Origin: Escherichia coli
GTDB lineage: Bacteria > Pseudomonadota > Gammaproteobacteria > Enterobacterales > Enterobacteriaceae
NCBI RefSeq assembly: GCF_965641715.1
Contig: NZ_OZ282453.1
Reading direction: 5' to 3' (one strand)
Length of the DNA stretch: 64,000 bases
Program-made: the position numbers and the translations under genes
In this document: positions 36-43,543 of the stretch, piece after piece
Layout of the letters: each line of letters begins with the position of its first letter
Numbering within the stretch: the stretch's first letter is position 1
Notes under the pieces: model-generated
Seen by the model: only the letters and a program-made list of their open reading frames with translations
Database searches by the model: none
What the model was told of the DNA's origin: nothing

Positions 36-944
36 CTAATTCTGCTGTAAAAAGTGCAGAAACTGACTTAAAGCATAAGAAGGCGTTTCGTTATTGCGCC
101 AGAACACTCCGACGCTACCTTTCTGTTCTATCTTTGGCAGGTTGAGTATCACCAGTTGTCCCTGGCTGGCATAACGTTGCGCCAGGCGTAATGACAAAAT
201 AGAGATCATATCGCTGCTTTGTAACAGGTTGGTACTGACGTTCATCGACGCCGACTCAATCGTGTTTTCTGGCAGCATTACGCCGTGGTCTACCAGCGCA
301 TTATCAATACTAATGCGAATGGGGGTACCCGTCGGCCAGACGATCCAGCGCCAGTTGGCAAGATCATTCCAGCTGAGGGTGGCGTATTTCGCCAGTGGGT
401 GCTCAGGGCGGGCGACAAAGCATACTGGCTCGGTGTACAGCACCTGATAATTCAGTGGCAGCTGCAATGCGCGACCGCCAATTCGCCCAACGACCACATC
501 GACAGAACCTGCCAATAGATCTTGCAGCAATGGGGTCATCACCTTCTCTTCGATATTCAGGTGTAGAGTTGGCATCTTCGTAAGCAAATGCAAAATCGCC
601 TGGGATACGCAGTCAGTGGCGACAGGAGAACAGCCAATTTTCAGACTGCCGACCAGTCCACCTTGTTTAAAACGGGCCAGTTCATGTTGCGATCGCTCCA
701 TGTCATTGATTAACCGTTGGGCATGTTGCAATAACAATTTGCCGCCTTCAGTCGGACGTAATCCTTTGCTGTGCCGCTCAAAAAGTGTGATTCCAATCTC
801 ATCTTCGAGTTGTGACAACCATTTCGAAAGCGCAGGTTGGGTGATATTCATCATTCGTGCGACATGGGTTAGATTGCCCTGTTCACCCAGCGCCACCAGC
901 ATTTCAAGGTGATGTAGTTTTAATTTTTGCGCCCAGTTCGCCAT
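36..944 (-). CDS. LysR-family transcriptional regulator, divergent from the catabolic operon (MhbR-like)
   Basis: N-terminal HTH (HLEMLVALGEQGNLTHVARMMNITQPALSKWL) and LysR substrate-binding region in the translation; start set at MANWAQ with GGAGG upstream, alternative start at 992; divergent from the transporter gene as in the Klebsiella mhb locus. Confidence 0.75.
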   Translation of the reverse strand: MANWAQKLKLHHLEMLVALGEQGNLTHVARMMNITQPALSKWLSQLEDEIGITLFERHSKGLRPTEGGKLLLQHAQRLINDMERSQHELARFKQGGLVGSLKIGCSPVATDCVSQAILHLLTKMPTLHLNIEEKVMTPLLQDLLAGSVDVVVGRIGGRALQLPLNYQVLYTEPVCFVARPEHPLAKYATLSWNDLANWRWIVWPTGTPIRISIDNALVDHGVMLPENTIESASMNVSTNLLQSSDMISILSLRLAQRYASQGQLVILNLPKIEQKGSVGVFWRNNETPSYALSQFLHFLQQN

Positions 945-1070
945 TTGCCATAACCTCCAGGTTATCTCTCTGCCCGAAATGCCATTGTACATCTCATCTC
1001 TTTAATCACAATATCGCAACATATACAAAACAAAAGAAACATCTACCTTACCTGCACTGAGGCATTTACT

Positions 1071-2429
1071 ATGACTCAACGACGTGATTTACAAGCACTT
1101 ATCGATGCTGCTCCGGTCGGCAAGATGCAGTGGCGCGTTATCATCTGCTGTTTTCTGGTGGTAATGCTCGATGGTTTTGACACCGCGGCTATCGGATTTA
1201 TCGCCCCTGATATTCGCACTCACTGGCAACTCACCGCAGGCGATCTCGCCCCGCTTTTTGGCGCGGGTCTGCTAGGATTAACCGCAGGCGCACTGCTTTG
1301 TGGCCCGTTGTCCGATCGCTTTGGTCGCAAGCGGGTGATTGAGCTGTGCGTCTTTTTGTTTGGCGCGTTAAGCCTCGCCTCGGCTTTCTCACCGGATCTG
1401 CAAACGCTGGTCTTCCTGCGCTTTCTCACCGGCCTGGGTCTGGGCGGCGCGATGCCGAACACCATCACCATGACCTCGGAGTATCTGCCTGCCCGCCGCC
1501 GCGGCGCGCTGGTGACGCTGATGTTTTGCGGCTTTACGCTGGGTTCGGCGTTTGGCGGGATTGTCAGTGCGCAGCTGGTGCCGGTGATTGGCTGGCACGG
1601 CATTCTGGTGTTGGGGGGCGTGTTACCGCTGATGCTGTTTGTCGCACTGCTGGTAGTTCTGCCGGAATCGCCACGCTGGCAGGTGCGCCGCCAGCTACCG
1701 CAGGCGGTGATTGCGAAAACCGTCAGCGCCATCACCCGCGAGCGTTATGTCGATACCCACTTTTATCTCATTGAATCAGCCTCCGTTACAAAAGGCAGCA
1801 TTCGTCAACTGTTTATGGGACGTCAGTTACCCATCACGTTGATGCTGTGGGTAGTGTTCTTTATGAGCCTGCTGATTATTTACCTGCTCTCAAGCTGGAT
1901 GCCGACGCTACTGAACCATCGCGGCATCGACCTGCAACACGCGTCCTGGGTCACCGCCGCGTTCCAGATTGGTGGTACGTTAGGCGCGCTGGCGCTGGGT
2001 GTGCTGATGGATAAGTTCAATCCTTTCCGCGTGCTGGCGCTGAGCTATGCCATAGGCGCTATATGCATCGTGATGATTGGCTTAAGCCAGGATGGATTAT
2101 GGTTGATGGCGCTGGCGATTTTCGGCACTGGCATTGGCATTAGCGGATCGCAGGTGGGGCTGAATGCGCTGACCGCAACACTTTATCCAACACAAAGTCG
2201 CGCCACGGGCGTGAGCTGGTCAAATGCTATCGGCCGCTGCGGCGCGATTGTTGGTTCGCTGTCTGGCGGCGTGATGATGGCGATGAATTTCTCTTTCGAC
2301 ACCCTGTTTTTCATTATCGCTGTGCCTGCGGCGATCAGTGCGGTGATGTTAACCCTGCTGATTACCGTGGTTCGCCAGTCGACCTCTGTCCCTGACTCAC
2401 TGCCTCGCGCAGGCGTTGTGAACGAATAA
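1071..2429 (+). CDS. MFS aromatic-acid transporter (3-hydroxybenzoate/gentisate transporter-like)
   Basis: 452 aa, multiple hydrophobic helices, MFS signature GRKRV loop, first gene of the catabolic operon. Confidence 0.8.
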
Positions 2430-2440
2430 GGAGCATCCCA

Positions 2441-3469
2441 ATGACTGATAACAATCAAAATAGCCGCGAGCAATTTTATCAGCATATTTCCGGGCAAAAC
2501 CTGACCCCGCTGTGGGAGTCACTGCACCATCTGGTGCCGAAAACGCCCAACGCTAACTGTGCGCCAGCGTACTGGAATTATCAGGAGATCCGCCCGCTGC
2601 TACTGGAGAGCGGCGGCCTGATTGGTGCGAAAGAGGCCGTGCGCCGCGTGCTGGTGCTGGAAAACCCGGCGCTGCGCGGGCAGTCTTCCATTACCGCGAC
2701 TTTATATGCCGGTTTGCAACTGATCATGCCGGGCGAAGTGGCACCGAGTCATCGTCATAATCAGTCGGCGCTGCGTTTTATTGTTGAAGGCAAAGGGGCA
2801 TTTACCGCCGTTGATGGCGAACGCACGCCAATGAATGAAGGCGATTTTATCCTGACCCCGCAGTGGCGCTGGCACGATCACGGTAACCCTGGCGACGAAC
2901 CGGTTATCTGGCTCGATGGGCTGGATCTGCCATTAGTGAATATTCTGGGCTGCGGTTTTGCCGAAGATTATCCGGAAGAGCAACAACCGGTAACGCGTAA
3001 AGAGGGAGATTATCTGCCGCGTTACGCTGCCAATATGTTGCCGCTGCGGCATCAGACGGGGAACTCCTCGCCGATCTTTAACTATCGTTATGACCGCAGC
3101 CGCGAAGTGCTGCACGATTTAACCCGACTGGGCGATGCCGACGAGTGGGATGGCTACAAAATGCGCTACGTCAACCCGGTCACCGGCGGCTATCCGATGC
3201 CGTCGATGGGCGCTTTCCTGCAACTGCTGCCGAAAGGGTTTGCCTCACGCGTTGCGCGTACCACTGACAGCACCATCTACCATGTGGTGGAAGGTAGCGG
3301 GCAGGTCATCATCGGCAATGAAACCTTCAGCTTTAGTGCAAAAGATATCTTCGTGGTGCCGACCTGGCATGGCGTGTCGTTCCATACCACGCAAGATTCC
3401 GTTTTATTTAGTTTTTCGGACAGACCGGTACAAGAAGCCCTGGGGCTGTTCCGCGAAGCGCGTTATTAA
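2441..3469 (+). CDS. gentisate 1,2-dioxygenase (bicupin)
   Basis: 342 aa; His-containing cupin motifs ([13 protein letters not shown].., WHDHGN); AAGGAG RBS 7 nt upstream; position in cluster. Confidence 0.85.
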
Positions 3470-3484
3470 TTTAGGAGAGAAAAA

Positions 3485-4186
3485 ATGACTCAATACGTAT
3501 TCGAACCGCAAGCGCCCGTTACCGTACCGGTTGTTGGCAGTGATGAACAATTCCCCGTGCGCCGCGTTTACTGCGTCGGACGTAACTATGCCGCTCACGC
3601 CCGCGAAATGGGCTTTGATCCGGATCGTGAACCGCCATTCTTCTTCTGCAAACCGGCGGATGCCGTTGTTCCGGTTGCCGCTGGTGAAACGCTGGCGCTG
3701 CCGTATCCGGCACAGACCGATAACTACCATTACGAAATTGAACTGGTGGTGGCGATTGGTAAAAAAGGCAGCGATATCCCGCTGGAACACGCCCATGAAT
3801 ATGTCTGGGGTTATGCCACGGGTCTTGATATGACTCGGCGTGACCGTCAAATGGAAATGCGCCAGATGGGCCGCCCGTGGGAAATCGGTAAAGCGTTTGA
3901 TCTCTCAGCGCCCATCGCGCCGCTGCACAAAGCCCGCGATATCGGCGGTATTGATAATGCGCCAATCTGGTTACAGGTTAACGGCGAAGATCATCAGCGC
4001 AGCGATATTCGCCATCTCATCTGGTCGGTGAATGAAACCATCAGCTATCTGTCAGGCTTCTTTGAGCTGCAACCGGGCGATCTGATCTTCACCGGTACGC
4101 CGGAAGGGGTTGGCCCGGTAGTGAAAGGTGATGTGATCACAGGCAACGTCGAGGGCTTAACGCCTATCGCGGTGAAGATTGTCTGA
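3485..4186 (+). CDS. fumarylpyruvate hydrolase (FAH family)
   Basis: 233 aa FAH-fold translation ([25 protein letters not shown]); AGGAGA RBS. Confidence 0.8.
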
Positions 4187-4191
4187 GGTGC

Positions 4192-4839
4192 ATGATGAAG
4201 CTGTACAGTTTTTTTAATAGTTCAGCGTCGTACCGGGTACGCATTGCGCTGGCGCTGAAAGGCATTAATTACCAGACCGAAGGGGTGAATATCCGTATTG
4301 GTCAGCAAAATGAACTGGCCTATCGGCGGATGAATCCGGTCGGGCTGGTGCCGACGCTGCTGACTGACGAGGGCGAATCACTCGGACAATCGCTGGCGAT
4401 TATTGACTGGCTGGAGAGGCACTACCCGCAAGTTCCGCTGGTGCCGCAGGAAGAACCGGCCCGCAACAAGGTGCTGGAAATTGTCTATGCCATCGCTTGT
4501 GATATTCATCCATTGAATAACTTGCGCGTGCTGCGCTACCTGACCGAAGAACTGAACGTCAGTGAAGAAGAAAAAAAACGTTGGTATGCGCACTGGATCC
4601 AGCAAGGGTTAAGCGCGGTGGAACAACTGTTGCGCCAGAACCAGTCGGGGCAATTTTGTGTGGGCGAGACGCCGACGCTGGCAGATTGCTGCCTTGTCCC
4701 GCAGTGGGCGAACGCGCTACGCATGAACTGCGATTTGAGCGGGTATCCACGCTGCAAAGCGGTGTACGACGCCTGCACACAGCTGCCAGCGTTCATTGCC
4801 GCAGCGCCAGAAAATCAACAAGATAAAATTTCAGCCTGA
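4192..4839 (+). CDS. maleylpyruvate isomerase (GST zeta-like)
   Basis: 215 aa with GST N-terminal thioredoxin-like fold (KLYSFFNSSASYRVRIALALKG); start may be the second ATG at 4195. Confidence 0.8.
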   Translation: MMKLYSFFNSSASYRVRIALALKGINYQTEGVNIRIGQQNELAYRRMNPVGLVPTLLTDEGESLGQSLAIIDWLERHYPQVPLVPQEEPARNKVLEIVYAIACDIHPLNNLRVLRYLTEELNVSEEEKKRWYAHWIQQGLSAVEQLLRQNQSGQFCVGETPTLADCCLVPQWANALRMNCDLSGYPRCKAVYDACTQLPAFIAAAPENQQDKISA

Positions 4840-4853
4840 CCAGGAGAACTATA

Positions 4854-6047
4854 ATGACGAAAGTGACACGCGCAGTAATTGTGGGAGGCGGGATCGGCGG
4901 TGCGGCAACTGCGCTGTCACTGGCCCGCCTGGGGATCAAAGTGGTGCTGCTGGAAAAGGCGCATGAGATCGGTGAGATTGGCGCGGGCATCCAGTTGGGG
5001 CCAAATGCGTTTTCGGCGCTGGACAGCCTCGGCGTCGGCGAAGTTGCCCGCCAGCGCGCGGTGTTTACCGATCACATTACCATGATGGATGCGGTGAACG
5101 CCGAAGAAGTGGTGTGCATTGAAACCGGGCAGGCCTTTCGTGACCATTTCGGCGGCCCTTACGCGGTGATCCACCGGGTTGATATTCACGCCTCGGTGTG
5201 GGAAGCGGTACTGACGCATCCGGACGTGGAATATCACACCTCCACCAACGTCGTGGATATTCGCGAGACGGAAGACGATGTCACCGTGTTTGACGATCGC
5301 GGCAATAGCTGGACCGGCGATATTCTGATTGGCTGTGACGGCGTGAAGTCAGTGGTGCGCCAGAGCTTATTGGGCGATGCGCCGCGTGTCACCGGACATG
5401 TTGTCTACCGTGCGGTTATCGATCGTGCCGATATGCCGGAAGATTTGCGCATTAACGCACCGGTACTGTGGGCGGGGCCGCATTGTCACTTGGTGCATTA
5501 CCCTTTGCGCGGCGGCAAGCAGTATAACCTGGTGGTAACATTCCACAGCCGCCAGCAGGAAGAGTGGGGCGTGAAGGATGGTAGTAAAGAGGAAGTGCTC
5601 TCTTACTTTGAAGGGATTCACCCCCGTCCGCGCCAGATGTTGGATAAACCGACTTCATGGCGACGCTGGTCAACCGCTGACCGTGAACCGGTGGCGAAGT
5701 GGGGAACGAAGCGCATAACGCTTGTGGGCGATTCGGCCCATCCGGTGGCGCAATATATGGCGCAGGGAGCCTGTATGGCGCTGGAAGATGCAGTAACGCT
5801 GGGTAAGGCGCTGGCGCAGTGTGAGGGTGATGCGGCGCAAGCCTTTGCGCTGTATGAGTCGGTACGAATTCCGCGCACCGCGCGCATCGTCTGGTCGACC
5901 CGTGAAATGGGGCGGGTTTACCACGCCGCAGGGGTAGAACGCCAGGTACGTAATCTGCTGTGGAAAGGGAAATCGCAGGCAGAATTTTATCGCGGCATGG
6001 AGTGGTTGTACGGCTGGAAAGAAGATAACTGTTTGCAACCACGCTGA
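4854..6047 (+). CDS. 3-hydroxybenzoate 6-hydroxylase (FAD-dependent monooxygenase)
   Basis: 397 aa; N-terminal FAD fingerprint VIVGGGIGGAATALSLARLG; DG and GD FAD motifs (GCDGVKS, LVGDSAHP). Confidence 0.85.
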   Translation: MTKVTRAVIVGGGIGGAATALSLARLGIKVVLLEKAHEIGEIGAGIQLGPNAFSALDSLGVGEVARQRAVFTDHITMMDAVNAEEVVCIETGQAFRDHFGGPYAVIHRVDIHASVWEAVLTHPDVEYHTSTNVVDIRETEDDVTVFDDRGNSWTGDILIGCDGVKSVVRQSLLGDAPRVTGHVVYRAVIDRADMPEDLRINAPVLWAGPHCHLVHYPLRGGKQYNLVVTFHSRQQEEWGVKDGSKEEVLSYFEGIHPRPRQMLDKPTSWRRWSTADREPVAKWGTKRITLVGDSAHPVAQYMAQGACMALEDAVTLGKALAQCEGDAAQAFALYESVRIPRTARIVWSTREMGRVYHAAGVERQVRNLLWKGKSQAEFYRGMEWLYGWKEDNCLQPR

Positions 6048-6198: not shown

Positions 6199-7149
6199 AT
6201 GCGTGTGTTACTGGCACCGATGGAGGGAGTGCTTGACTCTCTGGTGCGTGAATTGCTGACCGAAGTTAACGACTACGATCTGTGCATCACCGAGTTTGTC
6301 CGCGTGGTGGATCAACTGCTGCCGGTAAAAGTCTTTCATCGCATTTGCCCTGAGTTACAAAACGCCAGCCGGACACCATCCGGTACGCTGGTGCGCGTTC
6401 AGTTGTTAGGTCAGTTCCCACAATGGCTGGCAGAGAACGCCGCCCGTGCGGTGGAATTAGGTTCCTGGGGCGTGGATCTCAATTGCGGCTGCCCGTCGAA
6501 AACGGTTAACGGTAGCGGTGGTGGGGCGACGTTACTCAAAGATCCTGAACTCATCTACCAGGGTGCAAAAGCGATGCGCGAAGCTGTACCGGCGCATTTG
6601 CCCGTCAGCGTGAAAGTGCGTCTGGGCTGGGACAGCGGTGAGAAGAAATTTGAAATCGCCGATGCGGTTCAACAGGCTGGTGCTACGGAGCTGGTGGTGC
6701 ATGGACGGACAAAAGAGCAGGGTTACCGCGCGGAGCATATTGACTGGCAGGCGATTGGCGAGATTCGCCAGCGGCTGAATATTCCGGTGATTGCCAACGG
6801 CGAAATCTGGGACTGGCAGAGCGCGCAACAATGCATTGCGATCAGCGGCTGCGACGCAGTGATGATTGGTCGCGGGGCGCTCAATATTCCCAACCTGAGC
6901 CGGGTAGTAAAATATAACGAACCGCGAATGCCGTGGCCGGAGGTGGTTGCTTTGCTGCAAAAATATACCCGTCTGGAAAAGCAGGGCGATACCGGGTTAT
7001 ATCACGTAGCGCGGATTAAACAGTGGTTGAGTTATTTGCGTAAAGAATACGATGAAGCAACGGAATTATTTCAGCATGTTCGGGTGTTGAATAATTCCCC
7101 TGATATTGCAAGGGCTATTCAGGCAATTGATATCGATAAGCTGCGATAA
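6199..7149 (+). CDS. dusC: tRNA-dihydrouridine(16) synthase DusC
   Basis: translation from [13 protein letters not shown] matches remembered DusC (315 aa); longer ORF from 6142 would place the hairpin and T-run inside the CDS. Confidence 0.93.
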
Positions 7150-7536
7150 TAGTGGAATCGCAGTTTATCAGAGACAATGAATCGCTTATTCAGCGTCATC
7201 ATCTTGTTGCGCTCCTTTCATGAGCTAAGCCACATATTGCCACTGGCGCAAGGAGCGCGCAGGGGGAGGACAATCGCCTCCTCCCCCTGCACCCCCGGGC
7301 TCTGGCGAACAAAATCGCCGCTGCGCGGTACCTTCAGCTTATCCCCTTCGGCTACCGGGTCGGGCGCGAGGAAACGTCCTTGTAAGACGCGCCCTCAGCC
7401 CACATCCATGTGGGCTGCCCCGGCCTTCGGGGAACGCTTCAGCGATTTTGACGCCACCAACACCGGAGCTGTTTGCAAATCAAGTACACAAAATATCTAG
7501 TTCCTGACCTGACAACTTATATGCCATATCTGATTT

Positions 7537-7620
7537 TTAAAATATCATCTTAAATACGCCAGTCACCACCAGTAGCCCAATCAGGAAAATAATCAATACA
7601 GCCCAGAGTATAATTTTCAT
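7537..7620 (-). CDS. yohP: small membrane protein YohP (27 aa)
   Basis: minus-strand ORF translating to MKIILWAVLIIFLIGLLVVTGVFKMIF, verified codon by codon; AGGA RBS upstream; not in the ORF track (below length cutoff). Confidence 0.7.
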   Translation of the reverse strand: MKIILWAVLIIFLIGLLVVTGVFKMIF

Positions 7621-7843
7621 TGGCGTTCCTTTATTTGTGAGTGCTGAATAAGTATAGGAAAAAACGAAGCCCTTTGCCGTTATCCATAAACGATTAAGAT
7701 AAATCGGAAGATATCATTTACTTAGTGTATATTTTTCTGGATATGTCGTTTTATTGCTACTGATGTATTGCCACGCGGAACTAAAAAATATATCGCAACA
7801 CACGGTAATCTCCGCGCACCTTTTCTTACCTGATTATTCCCCC

Positions 7844-9280
7844 ATGAATCGTGATTCCTTTTATCCAGCCATCGCCTGTTTTCCGCTGTTACTGATGCTG
7901 ACCGGGTGTGCGCCTATGCATGAAACCCGCCAGGCGTTAAGCCAGCAAACGCCCGCTGCACAAGTTGACACCGCATTACCCACGGCGCTGAAAAATGGTT
8001 GGCCAGACAGCCAATGGTGGCTGGAGTATCACGATAATCAACTCACTTCATTAATTAACAATGCACTACAGAACGCACCGGATATGCAGGTGGCTGAACA
8101 GCGCATTCAGCTAGCTGAAGCCCAGGCGAAGGCAATTGCCACTCAGGATGGTCCGCAGATCGACTTTTCTGCGGATATGGAGCGGCAAAAAATGTCGGCA
8201 GAAGGGCTAATGGGGCCGTTTGCTCTGAACGATCCGGCCGCAGGTACGACCGGTCCGTGGTACACCAACGGAACTTTTGGCTTAACGGCGGGCTGGCATC
8301 TCGATATCTGGGGAAAGAATCGGGCGGAGGTTACTGCCCGCCTGGGTACGGTTAAAGCACGGGCGGCGGAACGCGAGCAAACCCGCCAATTGCTGGCTGG
8401 CAGCGTAGCCCGCCTGTACTGGGAGTGGCAAACCCAGGCGGCGTTAAACACGGTCTTGCAGCAAATCGAAAAAGAGCAGAACACCATTATCGCGACCGAT
8501 CGCCAGCTATATCAGAACGGGATTACTTCTTCAGTTGAAGGTGTGGAAACCGATATTAATGCCAGCAAAACCCGGCAGCAGCTCAACGATGTCGCGGGGA
8601 AAATGAAAATTATTGAGGCACGGTTAAGCGCACTTACAAATCACCAGACAAAGTCATTGAAGCTTAAACCGGTCGCGTTGCCGAAAGTGGCAAGCCAGCT
8701 TCCTGATGAACTGGGGTACTCCTTACTGGCCCGGCGGGCAGATTTGCAGGCGGCGCACTGGTACGTTGAGTCATCGCTAAGCACCATTGATGCGGCAAAA
8801 GCGGCATTTTATCCTGACATCAACCTGATGGCCTTCCTGCAACAGGATGCGTTGCACTTAAGCGATCTGTTCCGTCATTCCGCGCAGCAAATGGGCGTTA
8901 CGGCAGGCCTGACGCTACCCATTTTCGATAGTGGTCGTCTTAACGCCAATCTCGATATCGCAAAAGCCGAAAGCAACTTGTCTATCGCCAGCTACAACAA
9001 AGCGGTGGTTGAAGCGGTGAATGACGTGGCGCGGGCAGCCAGTCAGGTTCAGACACTGGCGGAGAAAAACCAGCATCAGGCGCAAATTGAGCGCGATGCC
9101 TTGCGTGTGGTAGGTCTTGCGCAGGCCCGCTTTAACGCGGGCATCATTGCTGGTTCCCGCGTCAGCGAAGCCAGAATCCCCGCGCTGCGTGAGCGGGCCA
9201 ATGGCCTGTTATTGCAAGGGCAGTGGCTGGATGCCTCCATTCAACTCACTGGTGCGTTGGGCGGGGGTTACAAACGCTGA
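7844..9280 (+). CDS. mdtQ: outer-membrane efflux lipoprotein (OMF/NodT family), uninterrupted
   Basis: 478 aa; lipoprotein signal with lipobox LTGC; OMF coiled-coil repeats; single open frame. Confidence 0.85.
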   Translation: MNRDSFYPAIACFPLLLMLTGCAPMHETRQALSQQTPAAQVDTALPTALKNGWPDSQWWLEYHDNQLTSLINNALQNAPDMQVAEQRIQLAEAQAKAIATQDGPQIDFSADMERQKMSAEGLMGPFALNDPAAGTTGPWYTNGTFGLTAGWHLDIWGKNRAEVTARLGTVKARAAEREQTRQLLAGSVARLYWEWQTQAALNTVLQQIEKEQNTIIATDRQLYQNGITSSVEGVETDINASKTRQQLNDVAGKMKIIEARLSALTNHQTKSLKLKPVALPKVASQLPDELGYSLLARRADLQAAHWYVESSLSTIDAAKAAFYPDINLMAFLQQDALHLSDLFRHSAQQMGVTAGLTLPIFDSGRLNANLDIAKAESNLSIASYNKAVVEAVNDVARAASQVQTLAEKNQHQAQIERDALRVVGLAQARFNAGIIAGSRVSEARIPALRERANGLLLQGQWLDASIQLTGALGGGYKR

Positions 9281-9332
9281 TGATATGTGACTTCTATACT
9301 TAACGTTTATTCAGCGTTAAGTGGAGAACTCG

Positions 9333-10094
9333 ATGGCACAGGTAGCGATTATTACCGCCTCCGATTCGGGGATCGGCAAAGAGTGCGCGTTATTACTGGC
9401 GCAGCAAGGGTTTGATATTGGCATTACCTGGCACTCTGATGAAGAAGGGGCAAAAGATACCGCGCGTGAGGTGGTTAGCCACGGCGTACGTGCGGAGATC
9501 GTGCAACTGGATCTCGGCAATCTGCCAGAAGGTGCGCAGGCGCTGGAGAAACTCATTCAACGGCTGGGGCGTATTGATGTGCTGGTGAATAATGCGGGCG
9601 CAATGACCAAAGCGCCGTTTCTTGATATGGCTTTCGATGAGTGGCGCAAGATTTTTACCGTTGATGTCGATGGTGCATTTTTATGCTCACAAATTGCGGC
9701 CCGCCAGATGGTGAAACAAGGGCAGGGCGGTCGCATCATCAACATTACGTCGGTACATGAACATACGCCGCTGCCGGATGCCAGCGCCTACACAGCCGCT
9801 AAACATGCGCTCGGTGGGTTAACCAAAGCGATGGCGCTGGAGCTGGTCAGACATAAGATTTTGGTGAACGCAGTCGCGCCTGGGGCGATCGCCACGCCAA
9901 TGAATGGCATGGATGACAGCGACGTGAAGCCCGACGCGGAGCCTTCGATTCCTCTGCGGCGTTTTGGCGCAACGCATGAGATTGCCAGCCTGGTAGCGTG
10001 GCTGTGCTCAGAGGGCGCAAATTACACCACCGGGCAGTCGTTGATAGTGGATGGCGGCTTTATGTTGGCGAATCCGCAGTTCAACCCAGAATAG
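9333..10094 (+). CDS. yohF: short-chain dehydrogenase/reductase YohF
   Basis: Rossmann TASDSGIGKECA, catalytic YxxxK (YTAAKHA); start at MAQVAII with GGAG RBS. Confidence 0.9.
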   Translation: MAQVAIITASDSGIGKECALLLAQQGFDIGITWHSDEEGAKDTAREVVSHGVRAEIVQLDLGNLPEGAQALEKLIQRLGRIDVLVNNAGAMTKAPFLDMAFDEWRKIFTVDVDGAFLCSQIAARQMVKQGQGGRIINITSVHEHTPLPDASAYTAAKHALGGLTKAMALELVRHKILVNAVAPGAIATPMNGMDDSDVKPDAEPSIPLRRFGATHEIASLVAWLCSEGANYTTGQSLIVDGGFMLANPQFNPE

Positions 10095-11559: not shown

Positions 11560-11732
11560 AAAGTTCTTTGACGTTGCATTGCTGGCGTAAATGTCAGCAA
11601 TGCAGCATTTCCTCACGATTCTCCTTTGACGATCGCACTTTTTGCTCGTTATGATGGCGTCGCTAGCCTCAGTAAATCCTTACTCCGGCGGTGCGCAACC
11701 CGTGCGCGTGAACCACTATCTGAATGCTCATC

Positions 11733-32161: not shown

Positions 32162-32244
32162 ATAAAAAAACCTGCTGGTGAGGCAGGTTCTTTTATTTAC
32201 TACTTTGATGTTAAGTTACTGATACTGCAACATGGCATCTCAAC
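32162..32244 (-). ncRNA. orzO: putative type I antitoxin sRNA (OrzO-like)
   Basis: minus-strand promoter TTGCAA-17 nt-TATAAT; 5' end is a 19-nt near-direct copy (17/19) of zorO 5' UTR positions 32392-32410, so the RNAs can pair; 3' end at hairpin ACCTGC/GCAGGT plus U-run. Confidence 0.5.
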
Positions 32245-33058: not shown

Positions 33059-36000
33059 TTAATGGAAAATGACGTCAGGTGCGCTTAACGCCTCACTCAA
33101 ATCAAACACATCAAGTTCGGCAAAAGTGACGGATTTATTGTCACGGTACACTCGAAGAGAACGGAAGCTCATTAGCGCTTTGCTATCAACATTGTAGTGG
33201 TTAAAACCGGGTGAAAACTTAAGGACCAGCCGGTACTCACCCAGGTCATAGACAAATGCGTCCTCATAGCCTGACTCCCAGCCTTTGTATCGCATTCCCA
33301 TAAGTTGCCCAACGGTAGCGGATTTACCTTCCCAGCGAGTCAGGCTGTTACTGGTTGACTCGTCAGGTGTGAGCAGCACCGTGCGGCGCGACAACTGGCG
33401 AAAAGGCGGCATAATTTCGTAATCGGCAAAAAGCTGTGCAAATTCACTGCGCATTTCTGCTGTCATTTCTAACGGGTGGGCAATGCCAATCAGAGCATCC
33501 GCAGGAAGGTCAATGGGCTCATCCTGCGCATTGCAGAACTCCCCCTCTGCGGCCACACGAAAGGCGTTGAGTAAACGACGCGGTTCATTTGCCGGATAAA
33601 CCCCCCATATTAATCGCTGGGTAACCAGGCGGGTAAAGGGATGATTAACAAACAGAGAATGAAAATCTGCCAGCGACCAGCGTCGGGTGGTACGTAGGGC
33701 AGCTTCAAGACGCGGGAGCAGGTTTTTGCTCACCTGAGTAGCATCTTTTTTTAGCCCTTTTAGTCGGGCCAGTGCCTCGGGCGCTTTCAGTTGATCGTCA
33801 TCGGCACGCAACCGGGGAACACTTTTCTGGCGAACGTTTTGTTGATCAAAGATAACCGGGTTGAGGTTTTCATCGAAGCGAACGGTAAACTGCCGGGGAC
33901 CAAAATCAAAAATCAACGCCTGCGGATCATCAAGACCCAGTGTTGGGACTAATCTGTCCGCTAACTCTTCCTGGCTTAGCCCGCGATTTTCTGCGACCAC
34001 CTGAAGAAATTCCGCTGCGTTTTCACGTAATGAAGAGGATTTCGCCCGTTGTGATACATGATGCAGCTGTATCAGCGCCATATCATTATTCATCAAGGTA
34101 AGTATATTCAGACCAATGACAGCACGGGCAGATTTGCCTTCTTGTGGCCAGGCGAGGATCTGTGTCGTCAGATCCCGAGCCGTGCTTTCGTCACCAAAGA
34201 GACTTAACGCCAGAAATGCCCAGTTGTCTTTTGCGGGGGCACCAGCTTGTTGCCACGCAGTGAAGAGATCCCAGGCAAAAGCGGCCAGCGTTTGTGGCTG
34301 GCAAAACGTTTTCAGTTGTTCCAGACCGCTATAAAAACGTCCGCCCTGGGTAAAGCGCAGCATTTCGCCGATAATTTCCAGAGCGTCATCGGTAACAGGC
34401 TGATTATTAGTGATAAGTCGCGGCCTGGACCACATTGCCGGATGCCAGAAATCAGGGGCTTTTGGAATGCGTGCCGGGTAAATGTCCATTGGACCCTGTT
34501 TCAGTAAATGCTCCAGGGCAGGCCATACATCTGTACGCTGCCAGCGGTTTGCCACGGTTTGCAGCAATTCACCATGTCCCTGTTCGTAAAGTAAACGCAG
34601 GGCAAGTAATGCAGCTTCGCTATTATCGCTGGATTTGGTGAAGACAAGAGGGATAAGTGCAGTAGCCGTATGTTCCGGCCAATGTAAAATCCACTGGCGA
34701 GCCAGATCACGCTGCACCGCGAAACGTCGCCAGACGCGGGCAACGGGCAGGGCCAGTTCTGTTGCGCCAAAATTTAAAATTAACGGAAATGTTTCTTTTG
34801 GACGATGTAAAAAAGCCAACATCAGACCTGGTAGCGCATCCAACCCGAGGATACTGAGAAAATAGTCCTCACCCGCGAACAGATGTTTTTTCTCATTGAT
34901 ACGCAGCCAGAAGGTCAAAGCCATCTCACGCGGCAACTGTGCCAATAAATACAGGTTCCAGACACTCTTTTCCGGACGATAACGTGAGTAGTTGTCATTT
35001 TCCCATATGTTAATTAACGCTTCTATGTGACCGCTGCGGAGCGCCTGTTCTGCTAATTGTGCTTCCGGGGAGTTCCAGCCATTCAGGATCTCTTCAACCC
35101 GCCCCTGGTAGTAATGCCACTGAACAATGAGTGAATTGCGTGCAGCATCCAGTTTTCCGGGGAGTATATAATTCAGAAACAGCCATACATCATCCCCAAA
35201 ACCCAGTTCCTGTAATACAACTCGCCCACTTTTTTGTTCCATGCGTTCCGCAAGAGATTCCGTGCTGAAATAACGGGCAGACTCAGTGGAGGCAAGCCAC
35301 TCTTGTTCGCCTGGTTGCCAGTAAACTTGCGGGGTTAATTCGAGCGGTGCCAAATCAAGACGTGGAGCTGTCATTTTTTTCTTACTACGCCACGGTGGTG
35401 AAACGAGGATTTCAGGCAGATTGCTGTTATCGGTGCCATCAATAACCGGTTTGGGCGGTGCCAATAAATAACTATTCAGTACTGCCCGGGCTTGAGTACT
35501 TAACCACTGCATCACCTCTTCTGCCAGTTGTGGCTGCGATGCCATCAGCGTTTGTAACAGCGTACGCCAGTATTCATCGCGTGCTTTTTGCTGGGCAGGC
35601 AGCTTTTTGTCTTCGATGATTGGATAACCAGGGCGGGCTGGTGGTTCTTTTAACGCCAGCAGTTCTGCCAGTGCCGCGAGCGTCGCGTGGGGGAAGTTTT
35701 TACTGTATTTAGCCACACGTTGCAGGCTGGGTTTGTTTTTATCAGCCACCAGTAGCAAGGTGTGGATGACCTGCGGATGGTTAATTTGTACCAACAGACT
35801 GCCGCAATCTTCTTTATGGGCATACATCGCGAGGCGCGGAATGGCTGCCAGTCCTTGTTCGCGCAAAAGGGCGGCGCAGGCCGCGTAGCCGAAGTGGTTT
35901 TTTTGTGACATGTAGCTGGCTTCGCGATCGCTAAATACGTCCAGGCCCCAGTATCGTTCGAGTTTTTTTACCGCCGTATTATCAGTAGCAACGACCTTTA

Positions 36001-36691
36001 ACCACTCCTTTGAATGGAGACTTGACCGGGAGCTTTCAAGACTGGCGAGTTCATTGGCTATTTCAGGCTTTTCCGGGAGGATCAGCGCAATAAAAGGACG
36101 GCGAATTTTGGGTATTCCTGGCAGTGCGGCAATGAGTTTATCGGCACAACGCTGCCAGCAACTTTCCTCTGCCAGCGACAGATGCTTACGCAAACGGAGA
36201 TCGAAATCGTTATAGGTCGCGGAGCCATAACCGTAGCCATAGTCCTCGTCCTGATACTGCAATGTCACTACCAGAGGATCACTCTCATAACACCGCGCAA
36301 TAAACTGGCGTGCAATCACCACCTCAGTCGCATATTCCAGCCCCTCTTGTTGGACGATTTCGTCGAGCAACTGTTGGCTGTCATTTTGCGCGATACAGGC
36401 TAGCGCCGCCATTGTCCGGGCCGGGATTGAGGGTTTGTGTTCGCCGATCAAGTTGATGGCCTGCGTGATGGCGGACTGCCACTCCAGTGAAAAATTTTCA
36501 TAACGCCAGACAATGTTTTTTTTCTTCTCAGCTTTTTTTAGCAATTCATCACCCAGTGTCTGGATGAGGCTTTCAGTGATAACAGGCGCTGGTTCGCCCG
36601 GCCAATTGCGATGGCTGAGTGGTGTTTTACCCTTTTTATATTTCAGTTCCAGTTGGGCGTTATCAGCCAGCCACGGTAATTCCTTGTCCAT
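33059..36691 (-). CDS. yehI: giant DUF4132-type protein YehI (no WGR domain)
   Basis: 1210 aa; C-terminal ~350 aa shares conserved blocks with the two downstream paralogs (WAF.AL...GDESTAR, LDFGPRQFTV, ADYE..PPF). Confidence 0.88.
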   Translation of the reverse strand: MDKELPWLADNAQLELKYKKGKTPLSHRNWPGEPAPVITESLIQTLGDELLKKAEKKKNIVWRYENFSLEWQSAITQAINLIGEHKPSIPARTMAALACIAQNDSQQLLDEIVQQEGLEYATEVVIARQFIARCYESDPLVVTLQYQDEDYGYGYGSATYNDFDLRLRKHLSLAEESCWQRCADKLIAALPGIPKIRRPFIALILPEKPEIANELASLESSRSSLHSKEWLKVVATDNTAVKKLERYWGLDVFSDREASYMSQKNHFGYAACAALLREQGLAAIPRLAMYAHKEDCGSLLVQINHPQVIHTLLLVADKNKPSLQRVAKYSKNFPHATLAALAELLALKEPPARPGYPIIEDKKLPAQQKARDEYWRTLLQTLMASQPQLAEEVMQWLSTQARAVLNSYLLAPPKPVIDGTDNSNLPEILVSPPWRSKKKMTAPRLDLAPLELTPQVYWQPGEQEWLASTESARYFSTESLAERMEQKSGRVVLQELGFGDDVWLFLNYILPGKLDAARNSLIVQWHYYQGRVEEILNGWNSPEAQLAEQALRSGHIEALINIWENDNYSRYRPEKSVWNLYLLAQLPREMALTFWLRINEKKHLFAGEDYFLSILGLDALPGLMLAFLHRPKETFPLILNFGATELALPVARVWRRFAVQRDLARQWILHWPEHTATALIPLVFTKSSDNSEAALLALRLLYEQGHGELLQTVANRWQRTDVWPALEHLLKQGPMDIYPARIPKAPDFWHPAMWSRPRLITNNQPVTDDALEIIGEMLRFTQGGRFYSGLEQLKTFCQPQTLAAFAWDLFTAWQQAGAPAKDNWAFLALSLFGDESTARDLTTQILAWPQEGKSARAVIGLNILTLMNNDMALIQLHHVSQRAKSSSLRENAAEFLQVVAENRGLSQEELADRLVPTLGLDDPQALIFDFGPRQFTVRFDENLNPVIFDQQNVRQKSVPRLRADDDQLKAPEALARLKGLKKDATQVSKNLLPRLEAALRTTRRWSLADFHSLFVNHPFTRLVTQRLIWGVYPANEPRRLLNAFRVAAEGEFCNAQDEPIDLPADALIGIAHPLEMTAEMRSEFAQLFADYEIMPPFRQLSRRTVLLTPDESTSNSLTRWEGKSATVGQLMGMRYKGWESGYEDAFVYDLGEYRLVLKFSPGFNHYNVDSKALMSFRSLRVYRDNKSVTFAELDVFDLSEALSAPDVIFH

Positions 36692-36700
36692 GCTCTTTCC

Positions 36701-39700
36701 TTATTCAAACAGGGCTTCAATATCGTTAATTAGCTCGCTGGCGGTGATGGCATCGAGTACGGAGAGCTGCGCTTCCTGTATTGAATTACTCCCCCAGCCA
36801 TAGCTTTCCGCTTTGCCTTCCCATAGCCACAGCTTGCTTAAGAGTTGCTCGGCACTCAGTTCGGCTGGCGACATGCCTACCGCAAAGCCTTCATCGATTT
36901 CCATGATTAACGACCAGCGGCCCAGAGGTTTGATCATCCAGCCGATCCAGCCTCCATCCTGTGGTTCGCCCTTTATCCAGCCTTTATTCGCCAGCCCCAT
37001 TACCCGACCGCTCGGGCATTTTCTGCCTGCCCAGCGGGTCAGTTCGCTGGCATTGCGCTCGGTTTCTGTCAGGGCGTAACTGTTACGGTCGAGCTGGCGG
37101 AACGGCGGTAGCAGTTCGTAGTCGGCAAAAAGCTGCCCAAATGCGGCGGCATCCGTCGGTGATATTTCCAGAACGTGAGGAATACCAACAGAGATATCGC
37201 CTTCCGGCAGGGTGAAAAGATCATCGTCAGCGGTGCTGTAGCTGTTATCTTCCGCTACGCGGAAGCACGTCAGTAGCTGGTTTTCGGTGCTATAAACGCC
37301 CCAAATCAGACGGCGGGTTAAGTGGTGTACCAGTGGATGTTCAACCAGGAAGAGCTGAAAGTTTTCTGGCGACCAGCGGCGACGCAGGCACATGGCGGAT
37401 TCCAACCTTGCTACCTGCTGGGCGGCGACGGTACGCGCATCTTTTTTCAGCAGTTTGTAGCGGTTAACAGCATCGTTCGCCTGTGATTCATCATCGCTTT
37501 TGTTTGGTTTGGGCAGGTCTTTCAGACGGCTGCCGGAAGCGTCACGCACAAACGGTTTTAAGGTTTCATCAAAGCTGACGGTGAACTGGCGTGGGCCGAA
37601 ATCCAGCAGCAACGAACCGTTATCATCCAGACTGAGATCCGGTGCTAACCGATCTTCAAGCTCCGCCACTGTCAGTTCGCGACTTTCAGCAATGTCGGCA
37701 ATTTTCTCTTTCGCCCGCTCCTGTAAAGCTTTGAATTTCAGTTTCTGAGCAATGCCGTTAAGCTGCATCAGAGCGATATCACTACCGATAGCGGCGAGAA
37801 TATCCAACCCAACGGTGGCGCGTTTATGCTGAGATTCGCCAGGCCAGGCGCGTATTAATGGCGTCAGTTTGCGAGCGGTGTCGTCGTTACCGAGAACACA
37901 TAACGCAGTGAACGCCCAGCTTTCTTTCGATGGTGCACCCGTAGTCAGCCAGGCGGTAAACAGATCCCAGGCAAATTCAGCCAGTGAGTCGGCGGTACAG
38001 GCATCTTTCACCTGCAATAATCCCGGATACAGCGCCTCTTCCTGAGGGAAGCGGAGCATTTCACCGAGGTGGAGGAGGGCGTTATCTGGCAGTACCTTGC
38101 TGCTATTTTTGAGTTTTGGGCGAGTCCATAATGGAGGTTGATAAAACAACGGTAAAGGGGGGATTTTCGCCGGGTATTTACCCACAGGACTGTTGTCGTT
38201 ATTTTTATTTTGAGTTTCCCAGGGCGGCGAGACTAGTACCATTGGTAGAATTTCTGAGTTTGCAAAATCTTCATTGCGACTATTCAGCAATTGCTGACAT
38301 TGTTGCAATAAATTTGCCGCTTGCGACGATAATCCGATGACTAATTTTTCGACCAATAAAGGATTTGCATTAAGTAATGAAACCAGCAACGTATGTTTGC
38401 GTTTATCATCTTTTTTTACCAATTCTTCGGCTAATGCCGCTATCGTGGCAGAAGGAAAATTTTCGGCACTTTTTATTAGTCGTTCATAACAGCGTTTATT
38501 AGTATCGGCGGCTTCGATGAGTGCCGTAATGGCCAACGGATGATTAATACATTTCAGTACGTCACCGCAATTATCTTCTTCAGCATAGGAAGCCAGGCGA
38601 GCCAGTGCCGCTATACCTTGTTCCCGTAATACCGTAGCTGACCAACTGGCACCATAGGTGTTAAATACATCAATGTATTGATAGTTCTCCAGTATTTCGA
38701 GCGTGAATGGATCTGTCGCTACCAGTTTCAACATTTCAAGTTGTGGAACATCTGCGACCTGGTGTAAACGATGTACGATCTCATGGGCCACTTCGGGTAT
38801 TTCTGGCATTAAAATGGCAATTAACGGTTGGCGATAGAGTGATATATCTGGTAACGCAACGAGTAATTTTGCAATGCAATTTTGCCATACTTCTTCTTCT
38901 GCTAGTGATAAATGTTTACGCAGACGTAAACTAAATTTGTCGTTATTCCTTCTATAACTGTCCTTGCTGCTATCTGCATAATTAATAAAGAAAGTCAAAT
39001 GTTCATCTTTATAGTCAAAATCGAAATCAATTTGCCACCAGAAGATGACAGTTTCAGTTGCGTATTCGATACCGAAGGTGCTTACAATTTCATCCAGCAA
39101 CTCGGATGAGGTTTCATCATTCCAGCCCTGACAAAAACATATTTCCAGAAAAGTAAGTACCGCCATAGTACGCGCGGGTATCTCAGTCTTTTGGGCCTTA
39201 ATTAAGCTGATTGCCTGGCTAATCGCATCAGCCCATTCATCAGAGCATGAGCTGTAATCGAAAGTCAGATTTTTATAATAATGATAAGTACGATTTGCCA
39301 ATCGGGAAATTAAATTTTGTTTTTCGGGTTTGGTTGGTTTTTTAACTGGCTCTCCCGGCCAAAGGCGGTGGCTGAGGGCATGGCGGGCAATATTCGGGGG
39401 AAGAATAATGGGATCGTTGTCTGCCAGCCAGGGTAAACCATTAGTTGCTGCCTGGCGATTTATTGAGGCTTTTTCCTCTGTGACCAGGACTTTCTTTGCT
39501 GAGGCATCATGTGAGTGAGCGTTAGCGTCTACTTGCTCCACATACCCCTTCTTCACCTTCTCCGCAATCAGCTTCAGTTCCACTTTTTCCGCCGCCGCAG
39601 CATCTGCAAAGCTTTTTACCTGACTTTGCCCGTTAGTGCCGACTTTACCCCAGGTTATATGCAGCTCGTTTCCCTGCTGCTCCACCGCCCAGAATTTATG

Positions 39701-39733
39701 TGATTTTTCGTCCTGATAAATATAGGTTTTCAT
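36701..39733 (-). CDS. WGR-domain plus DUF4132 protein, 1010-aa paralog of MolR/YehI
   Basis: N-terminal WGR-like module (KFWAVEQQGNELHITWGKVGT) and C-terminal module about 75% identical to the molR-like product by eye. Confidence 0.85.
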   Translation of the reverse strand: MKTYIYQDEKSHKFWAVEQQGNELHITWGKVGTNGQSQVKSFADAAAAEKVELKLIAEKVKKGYVEQVDANAHSHDASAKKVLVTEEKASINRQAATNGLPWLADNDPIILPPNIARHALSHRLWPGEPVKKPTKPEKQNLISRLANRTYHYYKNLTFDYSSCSDEWADAISQAISLIKAQKTEIPARTMAVLTFLEICFCQGWNDETSSELLDEIVSTFGIEYATETVIFWWQIDFDFDYKDEHLTFFINYADSSKDSYRRNNDKFSLRLRKHLSLAEEEVWQNCIAKLLVALPDISLYRQPLIAILMPEIPEVAHEIVHRLHQVADVPQLEMLKLVATDPFTLEILENYQYIDVFNTYGASWSATVLREQGIAALARLASYAEEDNCGDVLKCINHPLAITALIEAADTNKRCYERLIKSAENFPSATIAALAEELVKKDDKRKHTLLVSLLNANPLLVEKLVIGLSSQAANLLQQCQQLLNSRNEDFANSEILPMVLVSPPWETQNKNNDNSPVGKYPAKIPPLPLFYQPPLWTRPKLKNSSKVLPDNALLHLGEMLRFPQEEALYPGLLQVKDACTADSLAEFAWDLFTAWLTTGAPSKESWAFTALCVLGNDDTARKLTPLIRAWPGESQHKRATVGLDILAAIGSDIALMQLNGIAQKLKFKALQERAKEKIADIAESRELTVAELEDRLAPDLSLDDNGSLLLDFGPRQFTVSFDETLKPFVRDASGSRLKDLPKPNKSDDESQANDAVNRYKLLKKDARTVAAQQVARLESAMCLRRRWSPENFQLFLVEHPLVHHLTRRLIWGVYSTENQLLTCFRVAEDNSYSTADDDLFTLPEGDISVGIPHVLEISPTDAAAFGQLFADYELLPPFRQLDRNSYALTETERNASELTRWAGRKCPSGRVMGLANKGWIKGEPQDGGWIGWMIKPLGRWSLIMEIDEGFAVGMSPAELSAEQLLSKLWLWEGKAESYGWGSNSIQEAQLSVLDAITASELINDIEALFE
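39665..39718. repeat. 54-bp segment identical to 43475-43528
   Basis: direct sequence comparison of the 5' coding ends of the two WGR paralogs. Confidence 0.85.
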
Positions 39734-39745
39734 TGTTAAATCCTT

Positions 39746-42700: not shown

Positions 42701-43543
42701 CGCAAAAGGTTGTCGTGCTGGGGATAGCGAGGGAATAGCAGCGAGTACTTTATCTACACAGCGTTGCCACTCATCTTCTGAAGCGAGTGAAAGATGATGA
42801 CATAGACGTTGATGCCAACTCGGTAGCGATTCTGCTTCGTGATTAGGTGGAATGATGGTGGTTACTGCGCCTTTTACTGGTTTATATTTGAGTTGAAGAG
42901 CGAGAAGGGCGATTTCAACGGCACTTTCCAGACCACAGCGAATGACTAAGTCATCGACCAGTTCATCTTGAGAGTAAGAGTTCCAAAAGCCCCAGAGCAA
43001 TGCTGCATCAGATTGCGCACTCCCTGTCGGTTGATTACCCTTAACTCGCATTTGTAACTCAGCAAAAGCCTGCTGCCAGTTTTCTGGATAAGAGCGGTAA
43101 TTGTTGTCGGGATCATATGCCCTGGTGTTATTCGCGATGCGCTTCCATATTTGGCCATCTTTGTACAGATAATTGATCTCTCTGGGGCGAGAGCGATGAG
43201 GAAAAGCAAATCGATTAATATCGTCAGTGACCGGAATGACTGCATCATCAGCCAGCCAGGGGCGTTGGTTTTTACTCTCAGGGGAAGTTTCAACTTCAGG
43301 AGTGGCTTTGGTAATGGGGGGGATATGCACGTTTGCTGAAGCATTTTCCACATAGCCTTTTTTCGTTTTCTCCGCGATAAGCTTCAGTTTCGCTTTTTCC
43401 GCTGCTGCAACATCAGCAAAATTTTTTACCTGGCTTTGCCCTTGGGTACCAACTTTTCCCCAGCTGATATGCAACTCGTTTCCCTGCTGCTCCACCGCCC
43501 AGAATTTATGTGATTTTTCGTCCTGATAGATAAAGTGTCTCAT
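39746..43543 (-). CDS. molR: WGR-domain plus DUF4132 protein, full length (MolR-like)
   Basis: 1265-aa uninterrupted ORF; N-terminal WGR (KFWAVEQQGNELHISWGKVGT); position directly downstream of metG. Confidence 0.85.
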   Translation of the reverse strand: MRHFIYQDEKSHKFWAVEQQGNELHISWGKVGTQGQSQVKNFADVAAAEKAKLKLIAEKTKKGYVENASANVHIPPITKATPEVETSPESKNQRPWLADDAVIPVTDDINRFAFPHRSRPREINYLYKDGQIWKRIANNTRAYDPDNNYRSYPENWQQAFAELQMRVKGNQPTGSAQSDAALLWGFWNSYSQDELVDDLVIRCGLESAVEIALLALQLKYKPVKGAVTTIIPPNHEAESLPSWHQRLCHHLSLASEDEWQRCVDKVLAAIPSLSPARQPFAALLLPERPDIANAMALRYADQNVPAMTWLRLVVTDDAALTTAEKYDFPPLYHDFRAYLAMLLANNGVRGVSRILLEFTEEHSDNPTYLFERISETEDLVKWLWKTNHPDAIQILILGVNGKKKHLEYLSKACQKHPAAAIAAYATLLAIHENNEWRKALVKLITATPELVCEVIPWVNAKAAGILSECRPLPVAEECEYATVDMLPELLVAPPWVINKKKNVIPVFDLPVLPIPAVTDITPGITELISHTDISRFSEIAQYQASQQTLFTDLPPIKKERWETSFIPLTPEQQILWRLGFKEWRRTGEEQYEKKIMPQSAVDALLRFDFPALKAEFAQYHNKGSRHWQLYALCFLPTQHAISFLNQIINEEQFSGEREILAIFGDAAIPAFMKCLQRKPQQLWIFTLFLGVSELALPMAQRLQKKMSAEDARKWLANFPRHAAAGLLPVALGKKGKDRDCARQALRLLVNLNQRETIEEIAQGYNQPDVLAALATLFDSEPLEEYPAKIAPLPGFYQFTLWRRPRLKSNNLPLSDDAMRHLGTMLSFPRDITAYAGLDIIREIFTRESLAEFGWDLYTAWTEAGAPAKENWAFTSLGILGNDDTARKLTPLIRAWPGESQHKRAVSGLDVLADIGSDVALMLLNGIARKIKFKALQEHAREKINIVAENRGLTMAEMEDRLAPDLGLDSSGSLILDFGPRKFTVGFDETLKPVVCDANGKVLKDLPKPNQSDDKTLATDAVNLFKQLKKDVRAIASQHITRLEQAMCQRRRWTAEQFRLFLVEHPLVRHLTRRLLWGVYNDENALITCFRVAEDSTYSDAQDELFTLPAGNIGIPHVLEIPPESAAAFRQIYVDYELLPPFQQLERGSYHLADNERNVHELSRWNGRLCQAGRIVGLERRGWQRLEESGSVYAMRKSTPYGALELETEPFSLIYGETGYSDLLPVESVKITAPYDRYGKQSSPTFSMLDDITASELINDIESLFD
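43475..43528. repeat. 54-bp segment identical to 39665-39718
   Basis: direct sequence comparison. Confidence 0.85.

Follow-up and report, generated by a model that had tools for sequence, protein, structure and literature searches.

In the window, by which we mean the whole 64,000-nucleotide stretch of Escherichia coli DNA that was analysed, mdtQ (formerly yohG) is an intact gene for a NodT-type outer-membrane-factor lipoprotein and an ordinary wild-type allele. Escherichia, Salmonella, and Citrobacter carry the gene on the chromosome as part of their core genome. The best explanation of the whole, which we consider highly probable, is a wild-type core-gene allele for a TolC-like orphan channel that would work with a FUSC- or MFS-type pump and that suffered a deletion in the K-12 lineage.

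7844..9280, plus strand: mdtQ (formerly yohG) coding sequence, 478 aa plus stop, from the open reading frame, NF008524, TIGR01845, and Pfam OEP.

The frame runs from the ATG at 7844 to the TGA at 9278-9280 and comprises 1437 nt and 478 codons with zero internal stops, as the sequence-only reading had claimed when it described a single uninterrupted 478-codon frame of the OMF family. A mechanical ORF call used the upstream TTG at 7754 as start, which would give 508 aa. The RefSeq start in strain A16 (WP_001078171.1) corresponds to the 478-aa form, and that protein is 100% identical to the MdtQ of the window. The N-terminus MNR... was kept across all orthologues examined, which gives the same start. 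The chance of a 478-codon open frame is (61/64)^478, approximately 1e-10, and therefore the frame cannot be open by chance.

The family models agreed on the identity of the protein. The NCBIfam MdtQ equivalog NF008524 scored 1023.3 bits against a cut-off of 650, with residues 1-478 aligned to profile positions 1-478. TIGR01845 (NodT lipoprotein-channel subfamily; TC 1.B.17) scored 274.7 bits against a cut-off of 210.05, and Pfam PF02321 (OEP) matched two stretches with an E-value of 2.6e-30. The score with the MdtP-family model NF007390 was 356 bits, below its cut-off of 597, which makes MdtQ a paralogue and not a member of that family. The TolC subfamily model TIGR01844 gave 53.2 bits, below its cut-off of 225.15. 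The gene of the window is thus the same gene as the MdtQ of NF008524, WP_001078171.1, and UniProt Q8X659 (O157:H7). Nothing of substance separates it from MdtQ of the WP_001078171.1 type; residue 20, in the lipobox, is Thr in the window, and Ala is commoner.

7844..7909, plus strand: signal peptide and lipobox, residues 1-22, L19-T20-G21-C22, read from the sequence.

MdtQ begins with MNRDSFYPAIACFPLLLMLTG|C22-A23, in which a signal peptide leads into an L-T-G-C lipobox. The claim that both elements are present was borne out: LLMLTG|C22 stands in the sequence, and all 128 homologues in an alignment have Cys22 (codon 7907-7909). The alignment has five further invariant positions, all of them present in the MdtQ of the window. 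Mature MdtQ is predicted to begin with Cys22 as its lipidated residue, and the Ala23 that follows at +2 would direct the protein to the outer membrane. The AlphaFold2 model placed a helix at residues 6-20. Thr20 in the window (A at 7901) is Ala in K-12, E. albertii, Salmonella, and Citrobacter. The exact 85-nt stretch with the Thr20 lipobox variant was found in at least 194 complete E. coli genomes, and the L-T-G-C lipobox also occurs in Phytobacter.

8156..8914, plus strand: predicted β-barrel strands, residues 105-116, 139-153, 325-336, and 348-357 (AlphaFold2).
Interleaved with the strands, the last reaching approximately 9259, plus strand: predicted tunnel helices, residues 158-224, 230-265, 365-431, and 437-472 (AlphaFold2).

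The AlphaFold2 model, built on the 128-homologue alignment, had a mean pLDDT of 90.5 and a pTM of 0.86. The predicted protomer has four β-strands and four long helices, which agrees with the NodT-type fold of four β-strands, long paired helices, and an equatorial domain. A Foldseek search returned CmeC, VceC, CusC, OprN, and OprM as the best matches (E 1e-23 to 1e-24, TM 0.76-0.89). The top 25 matches were lipoprotein channels throughout (CmeC, VceC, CusC, OprN, OprM, SilC, OprJ, and MtrE; E ≤ 7e-21). TolC (PDB 1EK9) has the same channel-tunnel fold as the model (Foldseek E 1.7e-14, TM 0.66/0.73), but it shares only 12-13% identity with MdtQ and is more distant than the lipoprotein channels. 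Unlike MdtQ with its lipobox, TolC is not a lipoprotein.

7991..7995, plus strand: A5 homopolymer in CTG AAA AAT (L49 K50 N51), the site of the K-12 frameshift, where K-12 has A4 (alignment).

The sequence-only reading had described mdtQ as a frameshifted pseudogene in K-12, which was right. The MG1655 annotation gives b2139 (mdtQ) as a 1436-nt pseudogene, and PGAP labels the gene of a K-12 derivative 'frameshifted'. Pairwise alignment of b2139 with the window showed one deleted A and 12 substitutions, of which three (T20A, I98V, and H267N) change the protein. The alignment that had been proposed as a check located this lesion as A4 in K-12 versus A5 in the window; the window copy, with its extra frame-keeping A, is unshifted, and the K-12 copy is shifted. 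Because one A is missing from the A5 run (codons 50-51), the K-12 reading becomes LKMVGQTANGGWSITIINSLP*, with the stop at codon 70. The K-12 product would consist of the signal peptide, 28 mature residues, and 19 out-of-frame residues. A single A, lost specifically in the K-12 lineage, accounts for the K-12 pseudogene.

Of 5,426 complete E. coli genomes, 5,407 had the 1.9-kb mdtQ locus at ≥80% coverage, and the locus was always chromosomal. The population was surveyed with short exact-match queries across the lesion, which serve as a proxy for pseudogene flags and cover this lesion type. The exact K-12 A4 form (84-nt query) was found in 355 of 5,411 complete E. coli genomes. Among the A4 matches listed, 60/60 were K-12 laboratory derivatives (MG1655, DH5α, DH1, C600, J53, NCM3722, and ER/NEB strains), and the restriction of this form to K-12 is an extrapolation from these 60 of the 355. 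The exact A5 form of the window (85-nt query) was found in 3,041 complete E. coli genomes. In a listing of 40 rows spread over the genomes, the remaining genomes spanned 85 nt with substitutions alone, K-12 derivatives excepted. A spread sample of 39 genomes showed a net length change over the locus in two K-12 derivatives only. The A5 run is a homopolymer, the classic site of indel errors, and a miscall during sequencing or assembly of the window or of K-12 might produce such a difference. However, A4 recurs in 355 independently assembled genomes, the exact A5 form in 3,041, the non-K-12 genomes in the sampled listing all span 85 nt, and the orthologues of other genera share the frame of the window. 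An artefact has a negligible probability and is effectively already refuted.

Other alleles occur at low frequency. Rare in-frame, internally deleted mdtQ alleles are carried by some E. coli (P0014, P0004, and P0025), and at least one E. coli genome (H40) is without most of mdtQ. An intact gene is ancestral in the species and carried by the majority, K-12 is the exception, and the intact copy is no trait special to this strain.

Intact orthologues of 478-479 aa were found in E. albertii (94% identity), Salmonella (81%), and Citrobacter (80%). The gene order mhb cluster – dusC – mdtQ – yohD – yohC – pbpG – dld – bglX is common to these three. With yohP and yohF given in brackets, the neighbourhood reads gentisate/3-hydroxybenzoate cluster, dusC, (yohP), mdtQ, (yohF), yohD, yohC, pbpG, dld, bglX. 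The position in the window, dusC/yohP – mdtQ – yohF/yohD, agrees with the annotations of K-12, a K-12 derivative, and A16. The substitution rates were as follows.

Window versus E. albertii: dN/dS 0.036, dS 0.94 (Nei-Gojobori).
Window versus Salmonella: dN/dS 0.069, dS 1.86 (Nei-Gojobori).
Window versus Citrobacter: dN/dS 0.060, dS 2.17 (Nei-Gojobori).

Because dN/dS is only 0.036-0.069, mdtQ is, by this sequence comparison, under strong purifying selection. Independent truncations of mdtQ have been described in S. Typhi and Paratyphi A isolates (PMC9241588).

7762..7789, plus strand: conserved non-coding block GATGTATTGCCACGCGGAACTAAAAAAT, 28 bp, 82 nt before the mdtQ ATG.

The spacer between yohP and mdtQ is AT-rich, has a length of 223 bp, and holds GATGTATTGCCACGCGGAACTAAAAAAT. 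Across five orthologous loci, selected through protein homology, a single base of this block varies, whereas the non-coding DNA around it and the synonymous sites are saturated with changes (coding dS 0.9-2.2). An exact-pattern scan of 100,044 species genomes gave 22 matches, one per genome, in the genera Escherichia, Salmonella, Citrobacter, and Phytobacter. For the window and 20 of these 22 loci, the block precedes the mdtQ ATG by 79-82 nt. The remaining two loci are those of Escherichia sp. MOD1-EC7003 and C. koseri; their mdtQ begins with ATGACTCG/ATGAACCG, which the search string ATGAATCG missed, and the alignment places their ATG at the same position. A TTGCCA inside the block resembles a -35 element, with no conserved -10 partner. 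We regard the block as a candidate regulator-binding site or unusual promoter element of mdtQ, and its conservation may be taken as further evidence for regulated use of the gene.

Several identities of the block were tried and rejected. A marbox for MarA/SoxS/Rob (AYNGCACNNWNNRYYAAAY with ≤2 mismatches) was absent from 7621-7843, and the window-wide count was that expected by chance. RNAalifold gave -1.64 kcal/mol, four pairs, and zero compensatory changes, which does not fit an RNA structure in the 5'-UTR, and no Rfam RNA family was found at the mdtQ locus. An ATG at 7763 is in frame in E. coli, but in Salmonella and Citrobacter the corresponding reading is MYCHA-stop, which excludes an upstream ORF or an N-terminal extension. 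The extension is further ruled out by a 2-nt indel that breaks the frame between the 7763 ATG and mdtQ.

The published outer-membrane proteome of K. pneumoniae ST258 includes YohG (PMC4404324), and MdtQ was detected and up-regulated alongside MarA and MarR in porcine E. coli under paeonol (PMC12584432). A scan of 7100-9400 for sigma-70 promoters and terminators stayed at chance level with nothing convincing before mdtQ, and no recognisable Shine-Dalgarno sequence was seen before its ATG. The mdtQ promoter lacks experimental confirmation (PMC11762307). The gene is dispensable, as K-12 lives without it.

These observations bear on the possibility that mdtQ is an intact but cryptic, decaying, and silent relic, whose frame is open merely for want of a lesion so far. 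K-12 lost the gene at no known cost, truncation occurred repeatedly in S. Typhi and Paratyphi A (PMC9241588), E. coli has internal-deletion alleles and a few genomes from which the locus is gone, and the upstream scans gave no convincing promoter or ribosome-binding site. Against this, a dN/dS of 0.04-0.07 at a dS of 0.9-2.2 is incompatible with neutrality, and a length of 478-479 aa is intact in 15 of 15 further species genomes with enough sequence. The upstream block of 28 bp is invariant across genera, and the protein was seen in both proteomic studies (PMC4404324, PMC12584432). We consider a silent relic very improbable.

The sequence-only reading had suggested that the intact copy provides a functional efflux component in this strain. 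That it encodes a working protein is supported by the low dN/dS values, the kept family-invariant residues, the confident fold, and the proteomics in K. pneumoniae and porcine E. coli. On sequence and model grounds there is good support that intact mdtQ encodes a working protein, while its efflux role and partner pump are conclusions that we infer.

No pump or adaptor gene adjoins mdtQ in E. coli, E. albertii, Salmonella, or Citrobacter. MdtQ is an orphan channel, because no pump genes adjoin mdtQ in any genus examined. A 2025 TolC review likewise treats it as an orphan channel (PMC11762307). The class of its partner was approached through the gene neighbourhoods of the nearest non-orthologous relatives, which share 35-42% identity with MdtQ. 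The contigs of three relatives (P0121, P0126, and P0132) were too short for context, so that six neighbourhoods were readable. In five of them (P0125, P0127, P0128, P0129, and P0130), a FUSC gene lies immediately upstream of the channel gene, and three of these five loci also carry YtcA and an AaeA-like adaptor. In the sixth (P0131), the channel gene has an MFS gene on one side and an EmrA-like adaptor gene on the other. None of the six had an RND pump beside the MdtQ relative.

The closest E. coli paralogue of MdtQ is MdtP (YjcP), with 35% identity over 464 residues (E 4e-88), and it is also a NodT-type lipoprotein. MdtP is the product of the last gene of ytcA-mdtN-mdtO-mdtP, in which MdtO is a FUSC protein, and the ytcA-mdtNOP architecture is found again beside the nearest non-orthologous relatives of MdtQ. 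The mdtP gene adjoins genes for an adaptor and a FUSC pump, whereas mdtQ has neither beside it in any genus examined. The best solved sequence relative is VceC of Vibrio cholerae (PDB 1YC9; E 1.5e-39, residues 51-477). Its fold matches the MdtQ model (TM 0.76/0.87, approximately 25% identity), and both are lipoprotein channels. VceC serves the VceCAB MFS tripartite pump, which is encoded with it, whereas mdtQ is encoded without a pump. Because of the operons of the relatives and of MdtP, and because of the MFS pump of VceC, we infer that the MdtQ branch probably serves FUSC- or MFS-type pumps with AaeA/EmrA-like adaptors and not RND pumps.

MdtQ might instead be a general exit duct, redundant with TolC, for RND, ABC, and MFS pumps (AcrAB, MacAB, and EmrAB). 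The words 'multidrug resistance' in its name and annotation agree with such a role, its fold equals that of the RND-coupled OprM, OprN, and CmeC, and mdtQ is an orphan like tolC. Both genes lie away from the pumps served, the pump being a presumed one in the case of MdtQ, but TolC has known partners and substrates, unlike MdtQ. The relatives speak against a general duct, since five of the nearest with readable context are coupled to FUSC systems, one to an MFS/EmrA-like system, and none to RND. Among solved structures, the MFS-linked VceC matches best by sequence, at E 1.5e-39 versus 5e-23 for OprM. The original report of yohG deletion phenotypes is said to be that of Sulavik et al. in 2001. 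A published report describes no effect on intrinsic resistance except slight puromycin susceptibility, and if the deletion phenotypes came from K-12, mdtQ had been frameshifted beforehand. A general back-up duct is unlikely, and a channel for FUSC or MFS pumps is preferred.

From family knowledge, MdtQ would be exported by the Sec pathway, lipidated at Cys22, and sorted to the outer membrane in a Lol-dependent manner through the Ala at +2. The model and homology suggest a TolC-like homotrimer, in which four β-strands per protomer would form a 12-stranded barrel and four long helices per protomer would form the periplasmic tunnel. The tip of the tunnel may dock on the adaptor protein of a pump in the inner membrane, which would let substrates exit the cell directly. 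The pump would be encoded elsewhere in the genome. The likeliest partner may be a pump with an AaeA/EmrA-type adaptor, either of the FUSC type (aromatic-acid exporter) or of the MFS type.

The E. coli FUSC pump AaeAB was given with a question mark as its outer-membrane partner ('AaeAB-?') in a 2021 review (PMC8277102). Among the papers searched, none names mdtQ and aaeB together. We speculate that MdtQ may be the missing exit duct of AaeXAB, hidden by the K-12 frameshift, and that the 28-bp block may be the site at which a regulator switches the channel on, although we hold this to be quite doubtful. If it were true, the pairing of MdtQ with AaeXAB would have escaped notice for decades because the efflux genetics of E. 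coli was done nearly all in K-12.

The finding of an intact mdtQ is correct, ordinary, and already documented. According to a 2025 review, mdtQ belongs to the conserved core genome of E. coli in spite of its pseudogene label (PMC11762307), and the pseudogene status in K-12 has been mentioned in passing (PMC12719787). Only the partner-class proposal and the conserved upstream block go beyond the existing record. By itself the intact gene matters little; in practice it serves to remind us that, at this locus, K-12 is the exception. MdtQ is left uncovered by K-12-based conclusions about the outer-membrane channels open to E. coli pumps, as it is by susceptibility data obtained with K-12 deletion sets. 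The by-products of interest are the consistent coupling of MdtQ relatives to FUSC pumps and the deeply conserved block of DNA upstream of the gene.

The non-coding region upstream of mdtQ and the genes around it include the following features of the window:
7762–7789, + strand, 28-bp non-coding block upstream of mdtQ (GATGTATTGCCACGCGGAACTAAAAAAT)
7177–7500, GC-rich repeat between dusC and yohP, reaching 63% GC and containing internal inverted repeats
9321–10094, yohF, encoding an SDR oxidoreductase, just downstream of mdtQ
36–6047, LysR regulator (− strand), then mhbT and a gentisate/3-hydroxybenzoate degradation cluster

All but one base of the 28-bp block was unchanged across Escherichia, Salmonella, Citrobacter, and Phytobacter. 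The block occurred once per genome in the 22 genomes matched, and its distance to the mdtQ start was 79–82 nt in 20 of them; the start-finding search missed mdtQ in the remaining two. A marbox, an RNA structure, and a conserved uORF were each considered for this block and rejected.

The lipobox of MdtQ in the window reads L-T-G-C, with threonine at codon 20 (7901–7903), and L-A-G-C is found at the same lipobox in K-12, E. albertii, Salmonella, and Citrobacter. The exact 85-nt stretch carrying the Thr codon is common to 194 complete E. coli genomes, O157:H7 strains among them, and Phytobacter MdtQ also has threonine in its lipobox. The threonine is a tolerated minority variant.

The repeat between dusC and yohP, from which a spurious 107-aa ORF arises, corresponds to TRIP1c, reported as a recombination hotspot (PMC10888264). 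On the other side of mdtQ, yohF was found in E. coli and Salmonella. It was absent from the Citrobacter and E. albertii loci (L005:7441–8047 and L006:7441–8050) when these were compared with 9321–10094 of the window, and a yohD-like gene directly follows mdtQ in both. The Citrobacter locus carries a methyltransferase gene in place of yohP.

The degradation cluster encodes a cupin dioxygenase, an FAA hydrolase, a GST-like isomerase, and an FAD hydroxylase. K-12 lacks the cluster at the corresponding site, where dusC is followed by yohJ, and the first 25 kb of the window was contiguous in only about 498 of the 5,426 complete E. coli genomes. The cluster looks ancestral and since lost from most E. 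coli, because it is syntenic in the Salmonella, Citrobacter, and E. albertii loci.

The yeh region (25001–50000), especially 33059–43543 (− strand), stood out by its low identity. Its identity to the best of the 5,426 complete E. coli genomes was 95.6%, compared with 99.1% for 1–25000, and only 243 of these genomes covered at least 80% of it in one piece. It contains yehLMPQ, metG, the beginning of a fimbrial operon, and three giant DUF4132 ORFs in tandem (1210, 1010, and 1265 aa). This region is a hyper-divergent segment.

Four Rfam matches in the window reached the gathering score:
11648–11728, + strand, Peptidase-S11 leader, before pbpG
32164–32237, − strand, OrzO-P antitoxin RNA (type I toxin–antitoxin)
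54648–54744, + strand, TPP riboswitch
62599–62669, + strand, naRNA4

[quoted passage not shown] The K-12 gene (L001:1324–2759, − strand) is already frameshifted at codon 50, so this phenotype needs another explanation if the mutants were made in K-12; polar effects or noise are examples. The mdtQ alleles of some E. coli isolates carry in-frame internal deletions of 24–58 residues that partly remove the tunnel helices. The encoded proteins are:
P0014, 435 aa, on 43 contigs
P0004, 454 aa
P0025, 420 aa

These deletions may represent independent inactivations of mdtQ in wild strains.
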